A stretch of 59,775 nt of DNA, the filler included, from Catajapyx aquilonaris (lineage: Eukaryota), in the NCBI GenBank assembly GCA_000934665.2. It is 2 parts of 2 records of this genome, joined end to end, with 100 filler letters (N's around TTAATTAATTAA, not from the genome) between each part and the next. Parts side by side here need not be neighbours in the genome. Positions count along the whole stretch, not along the records: positions 1 to 29,844 come from JYFJ02004732.1; 1 more part is not named here. One strand, given 5' to 3'. The translations under genes and the position numbers were made by a program. Positions 2,810 to 29,844 of this stretch are shown piece after piece (the first letter of the stretch is position 1; the number at the start of each line of letters is the position of its first letter). The notes below the pieces were generated by a model. That model was not told the origin of the DNA. It searched no databases and worked only from the letters and a program-made list of their open reading frames with translations.

Positions 2810-3040
2810 TTGAATAAAATTCGCAGCAGGAATCTGAATGACATTTTTTTAGTGTGGAAAGGTTGACCTTACCCACTATATGCATACAGGGTGATCCAGA
2901 ATAATTGCTTTTGCGATTTTTTCTCACGAAGCTGTATGTGATTGTGAGTTTTTGTCGAGGTTTTTGTGCATCATGGAAATCCAAATAGCGTGCTATGAGG
3001 ACTTGTCGAAGAATACGTTTTGCGGTGCTACAGTTTCAAC

Positions 3041-4079
3041 CAGGGTTGATAACCGAACCGAACCCTTGCTTAGTGAACCTGATAACGTCAGAGCCACTCC
3101 GGATCAGTAGAGCCGGGTCCGGAGCGAGCGTCGGAGCTTGGTTCGGGTTCGAGTGGGTTCGGGGGAGAGTGGAGCCAAAGTCGGAGCGGGTCCGGAGTTT
3201 GGTTGGGAGCTTGCCAGCTTGCCCGGGAGTTTGGTTCGGGCCAGCGCCACAGGAGTTGAACCCGGTTCCAGAGCGTGTTCGGAGCGGTTCACAGCCTGGT
3301 TAGGTCATACATACCAACTCAACGGGTGGAAAGGCAGAAAAACCAGTGGATTTACTCCAACGTATGCGTCATGTTGTCATGCTGCCAGAATGACATCTCC
3401 AAGACCCCCGATACAGGGTGTACCGCATATGTCACATTTTCATATCATACGCATTATTTTGGATGTCAGATTTTCATGTCATATGCATTTTTTAGATGTT
3501 ACATTTTCATGTCATACCCATTTGTTGGATGTCACAATATTATGTCATACCCAGTTTTTGGATGTCACATTTACATGTCATATGCATTTGTTGCATGCCA
3601 CATTTTTATGCCATATGCATTTTTGTACTTTACAATATCATGTTGTAAAATACAAAAAAATGCGTATGACATGAAGATGAGACATGCAAAAAATGGGAAT
3701 GACAAAAATGCAACATTTGCTGTGTACCCTGTATCGCGGGTGCTTGGAAATGTCATTCTCCCACCATGAAAACATGACTCATACGTAGAAGTAAATCCAC
3801 GGGTTTTTCTGCCTTTCCACCTGTTGAGTTGGTACTTGGTATGTATGACCTAACCAAGCTTTGAACCACTCCGAACCAGCTCCAGATCCATTGGCCTCAC
3901 CCAAACTCCGGAACAAGCTGGCAAGCTCCTAGCCAAACTCCAGACCCGTTCCGAACTTGGCTCCACTCGGCTCCTGATCCCACTCGAACCCGAACCACAC
4001 CCCGACGCTTGCTCTGGACCCGGCTCTACTGCTCCGGAGAAGATCTCGGAGCAAGGGTTCGGTTCAGTTAACAACCCTG
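3041..4079. mobile_element. hAT-like foldback non-autonomous element with 8-bp TSD
   Basis: Termini CAGGGTTG...CAACCCTG; TSD GTTTCAAC (3033-3040) / GTTGCAAC (4080-4087); ~400-bp inverted arms. Confidence 0.8.
3428..3625. repeat. ~33-bp tandem repeat (about 6 copies) in the centre of the foldback element
   Basis: Unit approximately GATGTCACATTTTCATGTCATA(C/T)(C/G)CATTT(G/T)TTG; 1-2 inverted copies follow at ~3652-3720. Confidence 0.85.
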
Positions 4080-4553: not shown

Positions 4554-5099
4554 CGTCGAAACTAGCATCTCAAAAGTTTTTTCTGAGTAGCCCTGGTACA
4601 ACAAGCAGTAAATACAGTACAATGGATTAGTGTTTAGCCAATTGGAATGGTTCGGATTTTAAAGTGTGCTACTTGCTGAGCATCATAGGTGCTGGAAAAA
4701 GCCTGTACTGGTGCAATGTCCTCATATCAATCCCAACCAAGTGCATAACTGGTCGGACAGGGTATCTAAAGTCCTGCCAGAGTGGCCATATGAATGCTAG
4801 GATATTGATCATGCAGTGTTGTGTTGCTTACCTTGGATTTTTACAAGGTCAACAGTTCCAGTAGAAATGAGCCAGTTGCTGTAGGGTTCATGTGTGGGAT
4901 GTTTGTGAGGTACAGAATTCTTGGAACCAAATTAATATATTTTAGTCTACAATTTTTACTGGGAATAGTGTCATTATAACATTTTAGTTGGTCATTTATA
5001 ATTTTTGGATGATGGGTTTTATTGCTTGGCGTTTTTCTGTCATGGTGAATGTGTGAGAGAGACTGAGAATTAAGGCGGACCCTCTTCTTTTCAGATTTC

Positions 5100-6700
5100 C
5101 AAGGACACCCCAACATGGCGTCGCATTTGGGTCAATTGAACTACATTCTCCCTTTCTTCAATAAGTCGCAAGCAATCTCACCTGCATGTGGACCAGGATG
5201 AAATTTAATTTGCAGAGCTTGAGATGGATCAGGGCAATTATATTCCCATTTAGTGAGACAAATTCTTGAGAAAGTCCTGTCCCGTCAGTGTTTCCTAATA
5301 ACCCGATAGCCACAGTTGCCGTGGATCCTACCCACTCAAAAGCCCTATTCAATACAGTCGCATTTGCTTGGTAATGGACAAAGTGAGGGCTTTGTAAAAA
5401 TAAGTACACATGAGGCAGCATACCAACCTTGCCCTGTGACTCGCATGTGTTTGTTATGGACAAAGGCAATGTTCCTGCATTTGTATGGAGGGACCTGATG
5501 GACGGCATGAGAAGGAGGCCTCTGGGACACTGGGGTGGGAAGGGCTTCAATCCCCTAACCATCAAGAGATCCCTTGCGGGGTGCTGGCGGGGACAACGTG
5601 AGGGTGGCAGTTGGGAAGAAGACCCATGGGCCTGGTTGCCGCCATCATTTGAGACGAACAGAAGTAGCCAGGGCTACAAATTACTCCAAGAGCAAGTCAC
5701 ACGTGGGGAATTCTCATGGGCTGGTTGGTCATGTTGTTTCCTCTGCATCTGTATCAATTCCTGTCTGCAGCTCTGACGTTCCAAGGTTGTTGAGAGGTCC
5801 TGGACCTTTCTTTTCTATTTTAATCCAAAGAAATGTTCCATGGAGCCGTCTAACACCTGCATTAATCTCATGAGGCCCTAAATTACTTCATTTCCATGCA
5901 GTCTGCTGAAGTGACTCCACGTGGATTATTCTCAGGGGAAGGAAATGGAAAATATTAGTAAAAAATTTTACCCTGGGGTTTTTAAAATATTTCCTCTACA
6001 GTCCATTGTAGATTGGGAAGGTGAAATCGCTGGTACTGTACTGTCCCTATGTCCATACCTGGTTGAAAAAATTCGGCTAGTCCATACCACTGTCGAGCCC
6101 TCCGCGTAATTGACTTTTTTACCTGAATTAGCTCGGAGAATCCGGAAGTTGTGGCTTACGCAGGTAAAATATTGGAATAAGTGTTGAGACAACCAAGAAG
6201 TTTTAAGTTCTAATTATTATTCAACACTTGTTACATAAGTATGCAACATGAATTACATTACACTTGTTACCAAACTTGGCAACTGATTTTACACATTAGT
6301 GTGCGGTTGTCGTGCCTCCTTACTCTTGCTGATTTGTCCATGGCGGGCAGCTTCCCGTCTGAGCAGGAGAAGGTCACGGCAGCTGGTAAATATGGTCATC
6401 ACTCGGTGTCTGGAATATTCGCCCGTCTACTGGTGGTCATCCTTCGTTGGCGGTTGGATGGTAATCAACGACGGCGTTGTGGTTGTTGGAACGTGGCTGC
6501 AGACATGTTGTGCCGAACGGGTTCGCTCGCACCAAAATGGGTGTAAGTGTGTAGGCGCTTACTGGTCATCGCACACTTGAAAGGGGGTTTGATTACTCTC
6601 GAGGTGACAGTTGAAGCTAAAATTACACGTTGGTGACCGCACCAACAAGTACTGCACAGTACATTGCAAGAATTCACACCCACTTCAGTCCAAAACTGGA
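5100..6700 (-). mobile_element. Possible degraded LTR-retrotransposon 5' end
   Basis: On the minus strand ...CTCGACA (6091) is followed by GTGGTATGGACTAGCC (TGG-initiated, PBS-like), then broken coiled-coil-like frames. No diagnostic protein motif was recognised. Confidence 0.25.
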
Positions 6701-8014: not shown

Positions 8015-9204
8015 TTAAAAACTTCTGCACGTGTGCCAGTTTTCCTTCTCAGCACAATGACTACACATGAAAATGTCCTCAGTGTCGCTAGTGTACCATG
8101 GTAATGAAACATGCATTAGTAACACGTGGTCCACTTGGCTCCATTTTTGTCTTTCACGTCTGACGAGGGACAGAGGGATGGTTCTGTTGATTCTGCCCCA
8201 GATCCCTGTGCGACTGGGTTGGTGTAGAGCCTGTTGCTGAGGTGTTTGAAGTGGTAGAGCTGCAACTACTAGGTGAAGACATAAGTGCTTCGTCTGGTAT
8301 TGCATCTCTCTTGAGTGGATAAATTCCTGTGCAACGAAACCCGGATTGTATGGTCTCTGGGGTGAAGCTTGTTGTCATGGCAGGTGTGAACAGACTGTTG
8401 AAGTGAAGCCTCCCAGGCCTTGTCATCTACATTTCTCAGGCGAAATGCTTCAATTTCTTTTCTCCATGCACCTTTGAGGGAGCGGTACACAGTCATCCAG
8501 GGGCTGGAGGAGATGGCTGGTGTGGGGAGGCAGGGTCACAAGGAGCACCTCATTCGTCGCTGCATAGTCTAGGCCCTCTAGGGCATCAGGAGTTGGATGT
8601 GTGGTATGAGAATCCATTATGAGGGCAACAGGGCGAGAAGGAGGAATAGAAGCCACAAAGTGTTTTAGCCAATCAAGGAAGATGGGACCCTTAATCCATC
8701 CATTGTCAGAGGGCCTGATCAATGAATTTGGAAATGCTCCATCTGACAGTCCATCCAACATGCGCTTGCCGCTTGAAAATGACCAGGGGCGGAATGAAGT
8801 GTCCAACAGCATTGACACATGCCAGTACAGAGAACCCACCAATTCCAACCTGCCATTTTCCTTTCTGGACTAAATGAATGCTTTACTCCCGCTGCCACCA
8901 CCAGGTCATATGCAATACGCCGGATTCGGTTCACTGTGAGACCAAATCCCAGTTCTTGCATATTAATTATGTATGTGACCAGTTTGATTTCCACGTCACC
9001 AGGCAGTGCAAAGGGTCGACCCACCTTTAATGCTTGGTAAGAGCTTGGATCGTCTCCTGAAGTTCTCGTCTAGTTCAATTTCAGGGTGCTCCATGGAATG
9101 TCATACTCCTTGGCAGCCCTGTAGACAGTCCACTTCTCCACCATAACTTTCTTGACAGCTGCTTTCAGCTACCAGGACTCATACTTCCGGTTTTTCTTGT
9201 CCAT
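8015..9204 (-). pseudogene. pogo/Tigger-type transposase pseudogene (HTH_psq, CENP-B HTH, DDE_1, C-terminal PHD remnant)
   Basis: MDKKNRKY..LKAAVKKV..YRAAKEYDIPWSTL; GRPFALP..E.KLV.YI..MQELGFGLT; SDNGWI..FLDWLKHF..RPVALIMDSHTTH..LPPHTSHLLQPLD; IQSGFRCTGIYPL; W..C..C..YH...FMCSHC. Multiple stops and frameshifts. Confidence 0.9.
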
Positions 9205-13965: not shown

Positions 13966-14690
13966 TTACTCATTGCCATATGGTAGCGCATGTTTCAGGA
14001 GCACCAGTGACTGGCCATGAACTTTGTAAATGGACAGTGGTGTGGCATCCTCTAGTCTGCTCTGTGTTAGCCTAACTAAATGATTAGTGCTTGCTGGTAT
14101 AGTAAGGTACCCATGGTAATGTGAATCGTACTGAATGATGTCCCAAGTGGAACACATATCATTGAACAATCTTCACTGTCAACATAAAGGTCTAGAATTT
14201 CTGCAAAACATGGTTCACCATCCTTTAAATCCCACACTACAGCCGTGTTTGCATAGTAAGTAAGGCCACTGATGGTAACGCTCTTACACTTTACAGCGTT
14301 GACTCTGTCACCTGTGGAACCAAGACTTTCCTTTAACAGCTGTACATGATCTACAGAAATTGTGCTATTTGGCAATGCCACAAATGAAATCTGTTCATGA
14401 TCGAACTCACTACTTGCAAAGTAGTAGCACTGTTTCAGTTGGTGTCTCCTGGCTAGAGTATAACTTAGATTGATTCTGTTTCGTGACAACTGCGCCCACT
14501 GTCTCAGTTCGGAATGCTTTGCCTCAAAGCGTACAGTGGAACAATGCACTAATGGTCCAAACCTTGTCACAAGCCATGGGTAGTGGACCAAGAAATGCAT
14601 TTTTGGTGTTATGCGTTCTTCTGGAAAGAGCTCATGAAACTGACCTAAAAAGTCAGTGACTTTCACAGTAAAACATGCCCACATTGTTCC
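13966..14690 (-). pseudogene. CMC/EnSpm-type transposase C-terminal fragment
   Basis: ITPKMHFLVHYP..FGPL..STVRFEAKH..TLARRHQ; after a frameshift YDSHYHGY..PLSIYKVHG..VLLKH. Confidence 0.8.
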
Positions 14691-14973
14691 AGTCCACATT
14701 GGGGCACATATGACCACATCTTTGTATTACAAAGCAATTGAAAACATCCCTATTAACTTGCAAGTTTGTAAATATTGTCAATCGATATTGCTGGAAGAAC
14801 GTTAATTTTTATTTCATCCCCTGCGAGCCCAGTGAAATTGCAATAAAAAATAACAAAAATTGCCTATAATGTTATCAGCATGGGCATGATGGGTGCAGAT
14901 CCCAACCTCACCACCTCCAGTTATATACTCACTGCACAAATTGAGGCAGTGAAACTTAATTACACAAACATAC

Positions 14974-15763: not shown

Positions 15764-16200
15764 TTAATAAATGGGGAACATTGTTTTCAAAACAACACCA
15801 TGCCTTCCACGCTTGCTGTAGACTGGCAGAGGAGTGTGCAAAGCCAGTTGCCTGAAATTCATCTCTGCATGGTTTGTGGCAATTACTGAATAGTAACCAC
15901 AATGAGCATGGTATTCACTGTGCTTGGATTTCAACAGTAAGAACAACTAATTTTTGATAATGTACATGTTCTGGATAATTGTGAACTTGGGATCAAAATT
16001 ATCCACGCTGTGTATCAAACACATTCCCTGTTTGTAGCGCACCCCATGATACTCAACACTTGAAGCTATTAATGCTGTGTCCCCTGGCAAAAAACCAAAT
16101 TCACTGTCAAGCTGATGGTGTAAGTCTTGAATTGTAACTACCCATTCACAACTGATTGCCTTTGGAAAGTCAGTCATGAGTTCACTAGACCACAAATGAA
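15764..16200 (-). pseudogene. Second CMC/EnSpm-type transposase C-terminal fragment
   Basis: VEYHGVRYKQGMCL..PKFTII..*LFLLLK..YHAHCGYYSV..PLPVY..GVVLK, homologous in pattern to the tail at 13966-14300. Confidence 0.65.
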
Positions 16201-16801
16201 TGACCCAAAATGGAAAGGGCGTAAGTCCATGAGACCTAATTTTACAGGGGAGACAAAAAACTGAAATGCGGCATTGTAAATTCGTCATGGTGGTCGGACT
16301 CGCGGGAAAGTTGATCTTATTAGTCGACATTGGCATCATGTTGAGCAGAGTTCGGTGGAAAACGCGTCATGACAGATGCGTGAGAGCGATTTAAAGGGAC
16401 GGGACTTGCGTCCCTTTCATTCTGAAAGATGGCAGGATGAGGAAATCTGTGCCGTTCTGTCACATGATGACATAAGTAACACAAAATAATACACTCATTG
16501 ATATAGGCAAACACTTTACTTCAACATTTTCCTGAATACATGTAGGTACATACCGGATAATGACACATATCTCCCATTCTGAGAGGGGATATTATGATCA
16601 TTTCCCACCAAGGGAGCAACATTATGCCCTCAGTCACTGTCGCCCTCAGATTCCTCTCCCCTTGTTTCTTGCGTAGTTAGGGACTTATAGAGAGACTGTG
16701 CGCCACTTGTTAAATACCTAGAGTTTCAAAACGTCTGAGTTTCAAAGGATTTATGGGTAATGCCTCCCCATATAGTGCCTCCCTTGGAAAGGTTATTTCT
16801 T

Positions 16802-18130
16802 TTACCTGGGGTTCCTTAACCAAACTCCTCCATCTGCAATTATTTTGTTCACTTCTTCTGCCAATAAAGTGGGGGCTTCTTTCCCTGCTGCATAATTTTC
16901 ACTGTGTTCCATGATCATGATGGTTTTGTGTGTTTTCACAGATTGCATGTTTGTTGAGCCTTCTAAAACAAAATTCACTGCTGTCCAGTTCAGTCCATAG
17001 CTGTTCATTCTGACACCATCACCTTCCAGTTTCAGAGTAATGGTTTCTTCCCTTCCGACCATGTTCTTGTGGGCACATAGCTCTTCCACCGAATCGACAG
17101 CAATCTTCATCACTGAATCTACAGTTGCTCCTGCAACTCTGCCCCTTAACAATGAGATATTATATTGTTGGTCCACATATTCCTGACACGATTGCAGCAA
17201 GCTCCACTTTGGAATTTGGGACATGGAGTTCAATGATTTCCAGGCATTTTGGCTGATGTGGCAGCTCAGCTGCATGTGCAAGAAGATGAAAACTAGATTC
17301 TTTTGATCGGGCGTCAACGAGGCAAAATCAGAGGTTCCTGCTATGTACAAATTGGGCTTCCCCTTATAGACACGGTCCCCTTTGCTGGGTTTAGAGCATA
17401 AGTAGCATTTCCCCCTATGCATATCATTATCTCCCGCAAGTCTATGCCAAATGAGTCAAGAAAATAGAGGCACGTGTCTGTTATCGTCATCACTTCCTTC
17501 AGCTTCAAATATCCCTGTGTCTTGCCTAATTCTCCGACTTTTTTTCCTCTGTTCACCAAGGAAAAGTCGCTGCCGGGGCCAGGCAGTCACAATTTCTCAA
17601 CTGTAAGGTTCAATTCATTATTTCTTGCCTTAAGGGCGTCCTTCTCCGTCACAGTTTTGTCAAGGGTTTCATGAAGTTTTGAAGTTGCAAGGTTCAGTTC
17701 CATGTTTCTTGCCTTAAGGGCGTCCTTCTCCATCACAGTTTTGTCAAGGGTTTCAATAAGTGTTGCAATGTTGGAGTCTTGTAGTGCCACTGTCAGGCTG
17801 CCTGCACTAACACGTGAAACATTTGATGTTGTACTTCTACAATACCCTACAAAACAGTACTCCTTCTCTAGCAACAAATATTTCCCCTTCCCTGATTTCT
17901 TCGTATATTTGCTCTTGGCGATTTTGGCATTCATTTGGATTGTGGTTTTCATGGCGTCAGAAAATGTGATGCTGAGGAGGCTGTTCAGGGCTTCATCAAT
18001 GGCAAAGCTTTTGCGACTGCAGATAGTTTCCAGTTGTAGCAATGTCCTGCACTTCATTGACACTTTTGCCTCACCGTCAACTACGGTCATGGATATCTCT
18101 TCTTTTATTGCGGAAAGTTCTCCCTCCATG
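16802..18130 (-). pseudogene. RAG1/Transib-like DDE transposase, N-terminal part, disrupted and 3'-truncated
   Basis: MEGELSAIKEE...coiled coil; in-frame stop at 17587-17589; CLYFLDSFGIDL; frameshift; then ITLKLEGDGVRM..WTAVNF..QSVKTHKTIMIMEHSENY..LLAEEVNKII. This is an RNase-H-like beta-strand Asp with RAG1-core-like downstream spacing, recognised by eye only. Confidence 0.55.
17605..17755. repeat. 84-bp tandem repeat encoding a 28-aa (four-heptad) coiled-coil unit
   Basis: ETLDKTVMEKDALKARNMELNL / ETLDKTVTEKDALKARNNELNL; nucleotide copies start at 17605 and 17689. Confidence 0.9.
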
Positions 18131-18153
18131 ATGTGAGCAACCACTTCACTGAT

Positions 18154-19128
18154 TCACTGATTTTGAGGGCAAGCCTGTCTAGCAAGTACGAGATGCAGGG
18201 ACTCCTGAGGGATGTACTTGGCACAGACATTTCCCGCACTGTCCTTCTTAAACACTTTCCTGGCAACCCGCACTCCACTCTTCATCCTCAAAGGAAAGTT
18301 CACCTTCCTACCGTCCCCAAGTGAATTGTAGACAGTGAACCACTTCTCGGGAAGATGTATGTCTTCGAAGGCTTTTTCTTCATAGAGGCTCCAGCCCTTC
18401 CCAATTGGCTGGCCTCTGCTACCAAAGAGAATCATGAAGACATCCTGGCGGAGACTTGCCCTGATGGCCCCTCTTGCTTGTGACTTCTGAGTCAGGCCTT
18501 CTATCACTAGGTTTAAGAACACCTCCACTCCTTCATCCAGCAGCTCCCGGCTCACGTTTGGGTACAAGTAACTCTTCTTCGCCGTAGCGTTAAGGTGACT
18601 CTCTGGTTCCCAAGTGCACTCTTGATTGGTGTGGTACTTCCATTTGACGAGGTACTTCTTTCCCTGTTGACCAAGTACATTATGAAATTTTTCATAATAA
18701 TGGAAAGTGGTGGATTGTTTAGAAATGAAAGTAGAGCTCGTGTCAGTGCTGGAAAAATGTTGCGGCTAATTCTGCTGCGCAAAATTGTTACAACAGTACC
18801 CATCGAAACTCTCCCCCCACTCACACACCATGAATGTAAGCATCCCTTTCACAAGCATCCATGTAATGACAAATAACACATCACTGCTAAACTCCAACAG
18901 TATACATATATTTTGACCATCATGATTCCTGAGAGTGACCCAATTCATTGTTTCAGCAATCTTGAGATTATAGTTGTTTATACTGATCACGTTGCTCTTT
19001 GAACGGATGAAATGTGCATCAAATTCAATGTGTGTCTTACCCTTTTTTGCAATTACACGTTCTACTTCATGATATGTTGACTCTAAGCGAGAGGTGGACC
19101 TTATCCCTCTTCTAGGAGATGGTGTCAT
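18154..19128 (-). pseudogene. Two-exon chromodomain protein gene (~200 aa), probably frameshifted by 1 nt
   Basis: Exon 1 19128-19041 (..TYHEVERVIAK), GTAAG donor at 19040, CAG acceptor at 18664, exon 2 18663-18154 (GKKYLVKWKYHTNQECTWEPESHL, continuing in frame into ORF 18154..18567). Confidence 0.8.
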
Positions 19129-19376
19129 ACTGGTCTCTCATGTGGACGTTTCTGAATTTTTAGAAATTGTAATAAATGTCATTGAGAGGACATGACATTC
19201 CATCTCAAGTCCCAACCAATATGACCTTCTTTACTCCCCGAAATGTTGCAAATTTTGGCCATTTCTAGTTTTGCTTTGCCTGTAGTGTTGTACAAACTTC
19301 ACCTTAGCTGCTAATGATTGTCAACTTTTTAAAGTTGCTATATTTCTATTAGTTGCGGTGTGCAATGACACGACAT

Positions 19377-19990
19377 AGAACGAAAGAGCACATTTCGAAG
19401 TTTTCATTGCACACAGTACAAGTGCTAAATATGAGCCCCTTTCGTCGCACGACTCACATCAAGACGATAGTCCAATTCTCTCCACACCCTGGCCAACATG
19501 CCTGGTGTGATTTATTCCACAGCTGCAACAATCCTGCGTTTTAACTCACACAGGCTTGTAGGTAGCGGTGGTACGAAGACGTGGTCCTTTACATGCCCCC
19601 AGAGGAAAAAGTCACACAGGGTGAGGTCATGAGGCCACTGGAGAAAAATCATCACACTCTCGGGTCCCTCCTCCGACACACGCGGACGTCCCGTACCCTT
19701 GCCCTTGCAAAGGCATCCCGTCGTCTGAAACTTATGGAACCACCGTTGAATGTGATTGTAGGGAGGGGCGTAACGCCCTCCGTACTGTCGGCGGAAGGCC
19801 CGCTGAACAGAAACTACCGAACCAAGCTTTGCAAACTGCAGGACACACAACGCTTTCTGAACGGGAGACGCCATTTTGTGAGGTGGCGCTGTGTGCCTCG
19901 CGGAAAAGTGCGGAGCCAACTTTTCTGTGTGCAATAAAAACTTCAAAGTGTACTCTTTCGTTCTGGGTGGTTCCATTTCAGATCAGCCAG
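19377..19990 (-). mobile_element. Internally deleted Tc1/mariner element (DUF4817-type HTH fused to catalytic C-terminus)
   Basis: MASPVQKALCVLQFAK..SVVSVQRAFRRQY..RWFHKFQTTGCL..GRPRVS joined to WP.DLTLCDFFLWGHVKD; ~40-bp inverted repeats at ~19377-19417 and ~19925-19964. Confidence 0.85.
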
Positions 19991-26214: not shown

Positions 26215-29200
26215 CACTGTGAAAAAATCTTCCGTAAAATTACGGTACAATGTACTGGCAACTTTGCGACCAGCACACTTTCCGTAAATCTACGGACTCT
26301 CCGTACCACACCAAAATTGCTTCCGTACTTCTACGGAAAGGGACAACGGATGTTTTACGGAAAGTGTTCCGTAATGTAACGGAAACCCCCTCTCAGGATT
26401 TAATGTTGAGCAAGCACCTGTCAGGATAAATACAATTTAAAAAACAGGCTTCCCAATATGTTGACCAGCATTGCAGTGGAAAAGGTAACCTACCTCTGAA
26501 TAAATTCCAGAGTTGCTGAGGCCTCGATGACAGTTTTTACTCCCTTCATTTCAGTACCTGCCACCTAAAACAGAAAAAAGGAAATGAATACTCTGAATAC
26601 TGAAGTAGCAGTAGGGAAGTCTACCTGAGCAAGAGGCATTGTCAGATATCCAATGGTGCAGTGGGAGATTTCTCCCTAGCTTGTACGCATATAATGGATG
26701 GTAGTCCATTACATCAGCGAGCTGCACACACTGGTATTGTTTCCATGCCAATGCCTCTGTCAGTCGGTACATGCCCAAGTCCGTCAGTTCTGAGTGGAAC
26801 AATTGCACAAGCAATACAACCGTCTCGTGTCCCACGACAAACATCTGGTGCAGCTTGGCAAATATAATTCCTCTCTCCTCCCTCACCATCGCAAAATATT
26901 GGCCAACCTTATAGAAAGTGCCCTTGAATCTAAGTTGGCTGCATGCGACAGACCCTTGCAAGTTAATACTAGCGGACTTCACTGCATCTTGTAAGTCTGC
27001 CGACACGAAGCTCACATCTTCCCCAAAATCTGACCTGATTATTACCAGTGGGTGCGTTTTCCTTGACTCATTCATGCATGCCTGCCATTTTTGGTGCTCC
27101 TGTGCGCACGTTTTCACAATGTTAATATAATTGCGCCCCGCCCTTGCTGTAGACTTGAGATATGAATGCTTGGACTCCATTCGCAAGGTCCACACCCAGG
27201 AAACAATCTTGTCGTCAAAATGACGTCAATATTTGGTCAGCTAAGACCGGATAAGACGTCATTATCCCGTCATGAGAGGACGTGATAAATTCGTCATTAT
27301 GTCACGAATTCGACGTCATTTTGGGCGTGAAAATGACGTGGTTTTAAGACGTGCTTTTAGACGTTAAAATGGCGTACTTTTAAGACGTCATTACTTGACC
27401 TAAAGATGACGAATCTTAAAATTTCATATTCCAAATATTGCAGGAAAGGTCAGTAGATCATAACTGCAGAGGTGAATTAAATGGGGTACTTGAAATTACA
27501 TCCGAAACACTGCATTTACATTGAACAACAACTGTCTTCATTCCAATTATTTCCTACATGAATATAAAAATGTACAGTTAGGCAAGTACAATCATTTTGA
27601 AATAGGTTCTCTCAGAAGATGTATGTATTATTTTGTGTAATTTATTATATTTATGTTATGCCCATGAGAATAAATGTGCCACTGAGAGAACCTATATTTC
27701 AAGGACTATGGTACTGTTCATATAAAAATACAGGTAATTGTTGCAGCTTGAACGATGTGTCCCTATTACATTCTGCAATTGGAGATGTTCTCAATGCCAA
27801 TAAAACATAAACGTGATATACAGTGCATATAATTATGTATATCAGGTTGTGTGTATTAGCGGAATTGAGAGAGTGATCACTACGTTTGTGTGAAAATGGT
27901 ACAAGCATACACTTTGCCTTGATCTGATCGGCAACTATCAGTCATGGCACTGACAACGAAAATGCCCACTTTCGATGAATCTCTTGGATATGTGTACAGA
28001 TTTTCATATTTTTTGAATTTAGTGCATACAATGACTGGTTCGCACTCCTCTTCCAGTAGTATCATGTTTTGTACCACAGCGACTGTATTGTCCTTTAGCA
28101 TGCACACTGCGTCCGCACTTCGATACCTATATGTTGTAAACACGCACTTGTTCCTCCTAGATTCCATCTTCTTAAACTCTTTCCCTACAACTGAGGACGG
28201 TTTTGGTCCTGCATGATGTTCGAGAGTACTGTGAAATGTTTCACCTCCTGTCACATTTTCTGTACTACCTGCCCCAATGGGTTTTTTTTTGGAGACTTCA
28301 CCATGTCTTTAAATGTCCCTAAATAGTTCTCGAAGGAAAACGCGGAAAAATTGTTGAGACTTCCATACTTCTCACAGTCTCCCTCTCACAGTCATTACTC
28401 AGGTGGCTTAACATATGCATGTTGTAAGTGAGGCAATCCCTGCCATAGATGAGCTCCGAGTGGCGTACAAAGGTCTTTTAAGTACCTATCTGCTCGATGG
28501 CACTCTGCCACAGACACTGTTCCTGACATCAGCAAAGTCACACTATAATGTAACAATAGGAAGTGTTCATATATTCCAATGTCTACTATGTTTCTTAAAA
28601 CAACTGGCCCTGTGTACAGCAGAAATGTTCTGAATTCTGTGGCCTTCCACAATGCCAATTCATTGATTTCTCGTGGCTTTCGGTTGAATTCTATAGGCAT
28701 GGAATGGCACAACCCTAAGAGCTTTCTTGATAACTCATCCACCCTTGCAGAAGGCAACCTTATCCTTCAATGGCTCCGTCGCCAGTCCACAACTTCAAAA
28801 GCCTGCGCATAACTCCTAAACATACACAGTGCATGTAGTCTACAGGAAAGTCGGTGACCATGCCAAATCCTAACCTAGTCAAAGGTGACACGCCAGTGTG
28901 ATGGTCATCATCGGCCTGACGCCTGAAATCATCATCACTCCTAGCTGGTGCTGTCAAGCCTGGTAGTATTACTCGATTCTTGAAATATTCACCATATTCT
29001 GTGCACTTAAAACAGGATGAACAGCCACTATGTGATTTCACACACTTAACATATGCAACAGCTGGAGCATCGCATACAAAGGAATGAACCCTGACCTGGA
29101 AAACTTTTTCTCCAAACACCAAACCTGAATTCAACAATTTTTCCAGTTCGTGAACCAAATCCTCCAAATATTCAGATAGGGGGGTAGGCTTCTGCTTGCC

Positions 29201-29740
29201 ACAGTAAATGCCAAGTGCAGTCCTGCACTTCTTTCAATGCAGCCAATATAGGCCAGAACTGTTTCCTGGTACTCTGAAACAATGGTAGCCCATCAATGTT
29301 AAAGGAAATGTGACTTGTGGGTGGTGTGTTGGGTAAACTGACGTCATTCAGACGTCATTCAGACATCATTCTTCCGTCGTAGACATGACGTGATTGTAAG
29401 GTCAGTAAATACGTCATTAAGACGTCGTTCGCTCGTCCTGGACATGACGTGATTGTAAGGTCAGTAAATTGACGCCATTGAGACGTCATTATATCGTCAT
29501 CGACGTCATTTTGACCAATATGATTAAATAATGACGTCATTATGACGACACCATGTTTCCTGGGCAGTGAAACTAAAGGTCCAAATTTTTGTATGAGGTC
29601 AGAATAGTGTAACATGTAATGGTGTTTAGGTTTCAGTTTTTTTGTGGGAAAATGATCTTGCCTGATTTGGAGATACTCGATTACCAAGTACTGCAAAAAG
29701 ACAGCTTCGTGGTCACTAAAAAGTGGGCAGCAAGCATACG
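26215..29740 (-). mobile_element. CMC/EnSpm element with CACTG terminus, transposase split by a nested insertion
   Basis: Terminus CACTGTGAAAAAA at 26215 with TCCGTA/TACGG subterminal repeats to ~26385; transposase KPKHHYMLHY..FGPLVSL (29565+) continues as WTLRMESKHSY (27194-26551). Confidence 0.85.
27195..29564 (-). mobile_element. Nested 2370-bp CMC/EnSpm-type element with CCCAG TIRs, 2-bp TSD and decayed transposase
   Basis: TIRs CCCAGGAAACA...TGTTTCCTGGG; TSD CA at 27193-27194 and 29565-29566; GACGTC-rich subterminal repeats. Transposase motifs FNIDGLPLF..FWPIL, FVCDAPA, DYMHCVCLGVMRRLL, EFNRKPR..WKATEFR, FSFENYLG (27880-29320). Confidence 0.92.
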
Positions 29741-29844
29741 AGGGGCAGTCATAAAGTTCTTACAATCACCGAGAAAGAAGAGAGTCACGGGCTAGTGCAG
29801 CTATTGTGTGGTAGGTCCTTTTCCACATATGCGCCATGCAAGGT

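Follow-up and report, generated by a model that had tools for sequence, protein, structure and literature searches.

A probable decayed copy of a two-gene transposon with a RAG1-like transposase and a chromodomain gene in Catajapyx aquilonaris

We have analyzed a 59,775-nucleotide stretch of DNA from Catajapyx aquilonaris (GenBank assembly GCA_000934665.2), referred to here as the window, in which the minus strand between positions 19263 and 16802 carries a chromodomain gene, here called chromo-X, followed by a pseudogene for a RAG1-like transposase. Through this copy we reached a family of transposons in which the two genes are joined: the pair is linked in relatives, lies inside terminal inverted repeats (TIRs), and forms a 6.8-kb element that recurs at more than 99.6% identity with different flanks, and a two-gene transposon is therefore real in its anatomy, its linkage, its mobility and the selection that acts on it. 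We put the probability at roughly 0.7 that the window segment is the decayed, 3′-truncated front of such a cut-and-paste DNA transposon, operating by the mechanism proposed below. The initial annotation of the window had suggested a cut-and-paste element with its own chromatin-reader gene; the two-gene, TIR-bounded mobile element is borne out, but the reader role is still a prediction. The window copy is itself a dead fragment, and the interest lies in the family to which it led.

Linkage of the two genes in related elements

A scan of metagenome contigs with a sister subfamily of the window transposase (alignment A4) yielded 79 loci, all of which are set here with the transposase on the plus strand. 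The window chromo-X protein matches 17 of these by tblastn at E<1e-6 (best 4e-16), and an X-domain profile built from the tblastn matches finds 20 of the 79. Chromo-X is downstream of the transposase and on the opposite strand in every one of the 20, i.e. the genes are convergent, tail-to-tail. Where a locus holds the C-terminal end of the transposase and at least 700 nt beyond it, the X domain is present in 17 of 26 cases, and 12 of 16 lineages carry the pair once copies at least 95% identical are merged; the association extends over at least 12 diverged lineages. Uninterrupted transposase open reading frames (ORFs) of 840, 840 and 795 amino acid residues (aa) are present in loci L001, L003 and L006, with the chromo-X stop codon 210–340 nt from that of the transposase (236 nt from the 840-aa ORF in L001), and in L042 the chromo-X ORF (3012-3686, 225 aa) has no intron and encodes a chromodomain that is complete. 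The expectation that the genes would be neighbors in other copies thus holds in 20 of the 79 loci, but the order there is convergent and not tandem.

L073 has a 579-aa ORF (4912-6648, plus strand) directly after the transposase, which by eye resembles a reverse transcriptase of the long interspersed nuclear element (LINE) type. The most divergent transposase lineage has a convergent ORF of 128–144 aa (L060:9715-10146 and L061:3513-3896, both minus strand) with an X-like pattern that the profile recognizes only at E 0.16.

Termini and mobility

The pair is enclosed by TIRs with the consensus CATRGCCAGAAAT. Loci L062–L066 share about 6.8 kb at 99.6–99.96% identity. Similarity breaks at the same element positions in all five, and the flanking DNA comprises four distinct left and five distinct right sequences. 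The left TIR of this type begins CATGGCCAGAATTT and the right one CATGGCCAGAAATT, and the inverted-repeat ends CATGGCCAGAATTTAATTTCA and CATGGCCAGAAATTCATTTCA have both genes between them. The L006 type is shorter, at 5.2 kb, and ends in CATAGCCAGAAATTCC and CATAGCCAGAAATCCC, a 23-nt TIR whose arms are 91% matching; in L005 and L035 the homologous end breaks at the same base and is next to two further left flanks. Similar termini are found at the expected places in L022/L024, L051 and L059. The ends are of the CA..TG form, with CATGGCC...GGCCATG in L062–L066 and CATAGCC...GGCTATG in L006; the search for TIRs in aligned copies was therefore productive, but they start with CAT and not with the predicted CAC. 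In L006 (148-230 and 5300-5383) an ATGGCGG motif is located about 45–65 nt inside the TIR at both ends, the right-hand copy holding the chromo-X start codon.

The transposase

With the 217-aa window ORF as query, phmmer found 11 matches at E<=1e-3 among 1.84 billion representative proteins, the best being a 92-aa fragment with 56% identity and the others including proteins of 721–836 aa. A word-indexed search with one full-length relative, P0004, brought in hypothetical proteins of four tick genera and of one octocoral, and a cluster look-up added a second octocoral. The intact transposases are about 800–840 aa, with an N-terminal domain, a long coiled coil and a RAG1-like core (D, D, CxxC, HxxxxH, E). 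In an alignment of the relatives (A6) the G-D-G motif, D394, C413 and C416 are invariant, H636 and H641 (each at least 90% conserved) and E661 nearly so, and the catalytic E of the family aligns with the glutamate of the GNE motif of RAG1L. The window copy keeps the first Asp only and does not have the CxxC/HxxxxH region, and conservation of these motifs is judged on the relatives.

None of the six family members scanned matches a Pfam transposase or RAG1 model at E<=1, nor Transposase_21. Two profiles of the family match the amphioxus RAG1L chain 6b40_A, with E values of 1.8e-6 and 2.3e-8, across about 275 residues that run from CxxC through H..H to the catalytic Glu; vertebrate RAG1 is next (6.8e-4 to 0.05), and HzTransib is absent from these sequence-profile matches at E<=1. 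The whole core was compared at the level of fold in P0004 and not in the window fragment, using an AlphaFold model built from a 16-row alignment (mean predicted local distance difference test, pLDDT, 81). A Foldseek search of the PDB with this model places RAG1 at the top (6cim_A, E 4.9e-16, about 570 columns, target template-modeling (TM) score 0.52), with other RAG1 chains reaching TM 0.63, followed later by amphioxus BbRAGL 6b40_A (8e-12) and HzTransib 6pqx_A (3.7e-10); the first different fold, the P element transposase, appears at only 6e-4.

A RAG1/Transib-like RNase-H fold is thus predicted in this relative, and the by-eye assignment of the window gene to RAG1/Transib stands as to fold and clade, from the P0004 comparison and the RAG1L profile matches, but not as to Transib proper. 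The modeled structure places the family in the RAG1/Transib/CACTA-Mirage-Chapaev ('CMCT') clade, with RAG1 and RAG1L as the nearest solved structures; because only RAG1, RAGL and Transib have solved structures, the match to RAG1 does not put the family inside Transib proper. The CMCT clade is described as comprising EnSpm/CACTA, Mirage, Chapaev, Transib, Plavaka, ESTA, Lanisha and RAG1, which have in common C(2)C and H(3-4)H motifs, CA..TG ends and target-site duplications (TSDs) of 2–5 bp, and the ESTA lineage is likewise recorded there as matching RAG1 by HHpred (Kojima 2025, PMC12730594). The full-length members (P0004 residues 786–807 and the C-termini of P0003, P0006 and P0018) share a conserved terminal tail, rich in helix, that matches the SAP domain weakly (E 0.05) and may be an additional DNA- or chromatin-binding module.

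The chromo-X protein

In the relatives chromo-X is about 200–225 aa long and consists of an N-terminal chromodomain followed by an alpha+beta domain of about 115–130 aa, the X domain. The L042 protein matches Pfam Chromo with an E value of 9.7e-14 (51.5 bits, profile positions 2–52 of 53). Chromo_shadow gives no match at E<=1 with either the window ORF or the L042 protein and no such chain is among the weak fold-search rows shown, and the linked chromo-X gene has no kelch or PHD match. At the aromatic-cage positions, which we take from HP1, the aligned relatives have Y/F, W and Y/W/F and the window copy has H, W and H, each His lying beside a Tyr; the two cage histidines remarked on at the outset are therefore present in the window copy, and the relatives are aromatic at both positions.

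The initial annotation had also recorded a stretch without a recognizable domain after the chromodomain, and this is the X domain, which is conserved over about 115 aa and has the consensus ..HDVF..LF..KG....LLEK.DFS...P..WD...D..GDG..V.FP.K.R.FLS.SPK....EKLS..F.K (alignment A5). No Pfam family matches it in the window ORF or the L042 protein. An AlphaFold2 model of the domain from a relative has pLDDT values of 93–97 and shows a helix followed by a mixed sheet; against the PDB its best Foldseek E value is 0.036, its best VIA-align Z score is 3.9, below the noise level of that tool, and the best match of an X-domain profile to PDB sequences is at E 0.15. From these comparisons of the model it may be a new fold.

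The two genes have diverged together. Pairwise identities in the transposase segment and in the X domain are correlated (Mantel r 0.66, p 1e-4, 78 pairs among 13 lineages including the window), and the window genes are similarly distant from the other lineages (15–28% identity for the transposase and 21–30% for X). The ratio of nonsynonymous to synonymous substitution (dN/dS) in the X exon is 0.13–0.25 in the five of 10 lineage pairs with finite dS, the other five being saturated; these values are rough because dS is itself 1.5–2.2, near saturation, and the substitution pattern indicates that the X domain is under purifying selection. A word-limited search of a large protein collection returned no chromo-X homologue at E<=0.01 among 23 candidates of similar length or, for the X part only, among 316 longer ones. 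Atlas look-ups overall gave scores of 0.82–0.89 to chromodomain clusters, mostly cnidarian, which serve as leads only.

The window copy

The features of the window copy, all on the minus strand, are as follows, in the order in which they would be transcribed.

19250..19263, minus strand: candidate decayed 5′ TIR, AATGGCCAAAATTT, with 12 of 14 positions as in the L062-type left TIR
19041..19128, minus strand: chromo-X exon 1 (88 nt, ATG at 19128-19126), encoding MTPSPRRGIRSTSRLESTYHEVERVIAKK plus one surplus G; first chromodomain strand
18664..19040, minus strand: GT-AG intron within the chromodomain (GT 19040-19039, AG 18665-18664)
18592..18663, minus strand: chromo-X exon 2, chromodomain part, GKKYLVKWKYHTNQECTWEPESHL; Pfam Chromo above the gathering score
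18232..18570, minus strand: X domain, about 115 aa, alpha+beta, without a family name; matches the relatives' profile at E 3e-24
18154..18156, minus strand: native chromo-X stop codon TGA, aligned with the stop codons of L003 and L043
18130..18153, minus strand: spacer of 24 nt between the two ORFs, in frame
17590..18129, minus strand: transposase pseudogene, N-terminal domain and coiled coil (MEGELSAIKEE...); in-frame TGA at 17589-17587 ends the segment
17602..17765, minus strand: tandem duplication of 84 nt, 89% identical, in the coiled-coil coding part, repeating a 28-aa unit
17341..17586, minus strand: transposase pseudogene, linker segment that continues the reading frame of the N-terminal part; a frameshift comes next, between about 17418 and 17374
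16802..17455, minus strand: transposase pseudogene, pre-RNase H region to strands 1–3 and helix 1; codon for the first catalytic Asp at 17020-17018

The coding span of chromo-X exon 2 runs from 18663 to 18154 on the minus strand, chromodomain first and X domain after it, and the ORF 18154-18765 (minus strand) matches Pfam Chromo with an E value of 1.6e-7 and 31.6 bits (cut-off 25.1) over profile positions 14–42 of 53. A splice from 19041 to 18663 had been proposed to rebuild the chromodomain; its place and the GT-AG intron are real and homologous in relatives, but as annotated it is out of frame by one base because exon 1 of the window has a surplus G. The first exon finishes in phase 1 and the second starts in phase 0, and the junction reads AAGg/gtaaga, where the homologous intron is in phase 0 with the pattern ..AAG/gt ... 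ag/GGA.. in all five relatives whose junction was examined (L003, L043, L006, L062 and L001). The surplus G may reflect a mutation or an error in sequencing a homopolymer. Lineages differ in the introns of chromo-X, with none in L042, one in the window (inside the chromodomain), and in L003, L043, L006, L062 and L001 both the chromodomain intron and a second one between the chromodomain and the X domain.

The second gene does start about 24 nt past the chromo-X stop on the same strand, with the TGA at 18156-18154 and the ATG at 18129-18127, and we note, as the initial annotation did not, that the two ORFs also share a reading frame. That the TGA is a nonsense mutation in a once-fused chromo-transposase ORF was considered and rejected: the stop is native, since it aligns with those of L003 and L043 and the family proteins begin at the equivalent downstream Met. 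The MEGELSAIKEE start, the coiled coil and the segment LKLEGDGVRM...ENY...LAEEVN are all present in the downstream gene. Its N-terminal segment (17590..18129) matches positions 11–135 of the family profile weakly (E 0.005), and its 16802..17455 segment does so strongly (E 3e-28; best phmmer match 3e-13). That the copy is broken ahead of the second Asp also agrees with what we find, i.e. an in-frame TGA, a frameshift, and a closing TAA at 16804-16802, about 10 codons short of the second-Asp column in the family alignment. Profile and sequence comparisons found no piece of the second half of the transposase anywhere in the 59.8-kb window. The ORF 14076-14726 (minus strand) was considered as the missing C-terminus and rejected, since it resembles a different CMCT-like family, located at 26551-29759, much more closely (E 2e-9 and 3e-6) than it does this one (E about 0.002–0.3). 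With a 1-nt splice frame defect, two cage histidines, a nonsense codon, a frameshift and nothing from the second Asp on, the window copy cannot work.

At the 5′ end, the absence of a TIR resembling a recombination signal sequence (RSS) from the window still stands, and there is one candidate 14-mer resembling the L062-type TIR, at 19263-19250 (minus strand). It is the sole match in the window with at most two mismatches on either strand, where 0.74 are expected, and its end is 122 nt upstream of the chromo-X ATG, compared with roughly 130 nt from TIR to ATG in L062. The probability of a chance match within 300 nt on the correct strand is roughly 0.002 per motif tried; because several motifs were tried, the likeness is no more than suggestive of a decayed 5′ TIR. 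A shorter 11-mer is not above chance in the window (35 found, 32.5 expected).

Proposed mechanism and alternative explanations

We propose that the transposase, probably dimeric through its coiled coil, would cut at the CA..TG termini, and that chromo-X, encoded by the element, would read chromatin by binding methylated histone tails in its aromatic cage, with the X domain enabling it to tether, license or steer the transposase. By analogy we infer a division of labor in which the transposase cuts and joins and chromo-X reads chromatin, and the role of chromo-X would then parallel those of the RAG2 PHD finger for RAG1 and of the chromodomains of chromovirus integrases.

Several observations weigh against this reading of the window segment. 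Nine of the 26 adequate loci have no chromo-X (L004, L014, L016, L023, L039, L046, L060, L061 and L073); L039 and L046 are truncated copies of lineages that have it, L073 is interrupted by the reverse transcriptase-like ORF, L060 and L061 have the faintly X-like ORF, and the absence in the L014 group and in L004 is without explanation. None of the 79 related loci shows the tandem order of the window, with chromo-X upstream on the same strand and 24 nt away. No DNA relative of the window's own transposase subfamily (alignment A3) was found among 138 pattern matches in metagenome contigs, 23 in genome contigs and 79 in viral contigs, and tblastn against phages gave no match, so that the tandem arrangement rests on one broken copy. 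The termini are CATG, CATA or CATT in five lineages and not the CAC of Transib or RSS ends, and a search for TSDs as flank repeats of 2–6 bp in L062–L066, L006 and L007 gave none that is consistent, a single 3-bp cross-contig match (CGT) being at chance level. L062 and L065 share a left flank and not a right one, and some contigs may therefore be chimeric over this repeat. At two cage positions the window chromodomain carries His, and CMCT lineages without a solved structure also match RAG1 in HHpred, so that a place in Transib proper is not established.

Chromo-X could alternatively be a true gene of the element that is no cofactor of the transposase but has an anti-silencing function against the host, e.g. 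competing with HP1-type readers for H3K9me nucleosomes over the element. Transposon-encoded anti-silencing proteins exist, and this role fits the data equally well as one in steering or licensing: chromo-X is a separate gene with its own start about 65–130 nt inside the TIR, the aromatic cage looks intact in the aligned relatives, purifying selection acts on the gene, and nothing found ties the X domain to the transposase. The co-divergence and the fixed convergent position of the two genes fit either role. Our own assessment is that an anti-silencing function is unlikely. A different type of objection is that the transposon has already been catalogued in Repbase or Dfam as a Chapaev, Mirage or Transib family, in which case only its reading as 'RAG1-like plus chromodomain' would be new. 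The C(2)C and H(3-4)H motifs, CA..TG termini and RAG1 HHpred matches are shared by CMCT lineages (PMC12730594); the elements are abundant in cnidarian-type contigs; and Atlas clusters of 98 and 96 chromodomain proteins (about 194 and 228 aa) resemble chromo-X with scores of 0.82–0.84, a lead only. However, the full-text literature, in the portions retrieved, contains no RAG1L with a chromodomain and its papers on Transib or Chapaev with chromodomains are not relevant, neither the transposase nor the X domain has a Pfam model, and Chapaev3 elements, as described in PMC3014272, are about 1.8–1.9 kb with CAC termini and transposases of 485–561 aa, unlike the elements here. We regard an existing catalogue entry as a definite possibility, with the odds leaning against it.

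The adjacency in the window could also be an accident or a rearrangement of a dead copy, such that the tandem order was never a functional design. This order has been observed once only, in a heavily damaged copy among other transposon fragments. Both genes, however, come from families that are linked in relatives, and they have similar identities to those relatives (15–28% for the transposase, 21–30% for X). The chromo-X stop is native and the transposase starts at the usual Met of the family 24 nt on, a junction that a random breakpoint would rarely give, and we consider accidental adjacency quite unlikely. The idea that the pair represents domesticated host genes and not a transposon draws on the long transposase ORFs kept without chromo-X by the L014 group and others. 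It is highly improbable given that TIRs bound the pair, that near-identical copies have different flanks, and that many copies, including that of the window, are decayed. The reading that we prefer continues to be that of a decayed front of a two-gene cut-and-paste transposon whose chromodomain protein would act as a chromatin reader.

Comparison with other elements and prior descriptions

The PHD finger of RAG2 is a reader of histone methyl-lysine, and by analogy the second protein of the present elements carries a module predicted to do the same, here a chromodomain. The transposase core is modeled as similar to those of RAG1 and RAG1L across some 570 columns and has D, D, CxxC, HxxxxH and E, in common with the RAGL/ProtoRAG elements and the vertebrate RAG1-RAG2 system. 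RAGL elements have the layout TIR - RAG1L -> <- RAG2L - TIR, the second gene being convergent and by the 3′ TIR, as reported in PMC7204232, and the second gene of our relatives is likewise convergent and next to the 3′ TIR. The differences from RAGL are that the partner consists of Chromo and X, not of a kelch propeller and a PHD finger, that the transposase carries a coiled coil at its N-terminal side and fails to match Pfam RAG1 at E<=1, and that the termini are CATRGCC.. and not a CAC heptamer and nonamer. The pelagophyte element AanRAGL has RAG2L and RAG1L in the same direction (PMC9435367), a tandem order like that of the window; gene order can therefore vary within such families.

The fold class is also that of Transib (HzTransib 6pqx_A, E 3.7e-10), similarly a cut-and-paste DDE element with TIRs. 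Transib elements are described as single-gene, whereas there are two genes here; HzTransib is moreover a weaker match than RAG1 or RAG1L, and no CAC terminus or 5-bp TSD was found. The Ty3/gypsy chromoviruses are likewise mobile elements that bring their own chromodomain, which work by Gao and colleagues from 2008 is said to have shown to direct integration to heterochromatin, but there it is fused to the retroviral-type integrase of a retrotransposon and here it is a separate protein of a DNA transposon.

More tentatively, and with appreciable doubt, we speculate that these elements could be a sister line to the RAG-like transposons, in which the RAG2L slot by the 3′ TIR would be filled by a chromodomain protein with a new fold. 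The combination of a RAG1-type transposase with a separate methyl-lysine reader would then be either ancestral, with the module swapped, or evolved twice, and X would be a transposase-docking module not seen before.

Full-text literature searches, with Repbase, Repbase Reports, Dfam and supplements outside their scope, returned no paper on RAG1L with a chromodomain, and the Transib or Chapaev literature mentioning chromodomains gives, in the parts at hand, no description of such an element. A term search of PMC9435367, PMC7204232 and a 2021 DDE preprint found no word starting with 'chromo'. We have thus found no published description of a two-gene RAG-like transposon with a different reader partner, and a prior catalogue entry may exist.

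How a RAG1-type transposase came to depend on a chromatin-reading RAG2 is an open question in the origin of V(D)J recombination. A separate, apparently still active RAG1-like branch with a different predicted histone-reader gene in the same convergent position is a natural system for comparison, in which one could ask whether chromatin licensing by a partner is general, whether it uses the same surface as RAG2, and which chromatin is targeted. The X domain, confidently predicted, conserved and without a convincing structural match, is perhaps a new fold with a testable function. For annotation, cnidarian 'hypothetical chromodomain proteins' of about 200 aa and tick and octocoral 'hypothetical proteins' of about 830 aa can be understood as the products of a gene pair from a single transposon family.

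Other transposon remnants in the window

Just upstream of the chromo-X gene, at 19361-19980, is a short element with 56-nt inverted ends (82% complementary) and a degraded ORF that matches the helix-turn-helix of DUF4817 (E 2.3e-9) and, weakly, that of Mos1; from these sequence features it looks like an internally deleted mariner-type element. Fragments of a second CMCT-type transposase family are found at 14076-14726, 15947-16366, 26551-27225, 28760-29233 and 29355-29759, all on the minus strand, with weak matches to Pfam Transposase_21 (tnp2) and DUF1258 (E about 0.04) and a common H..H..E motif that is shared only faintly with the transposase linked to chromo-X. Within this set, 14076-14726 is similar to 29355-29759 (E 2e-9) and to 26551-27225 (E 3e-6). 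A fragment of a DDE_1 transposase of the pogo/Tigger type is located at 8450-8869 on the minus strand (Pfam E 4.2e-13).

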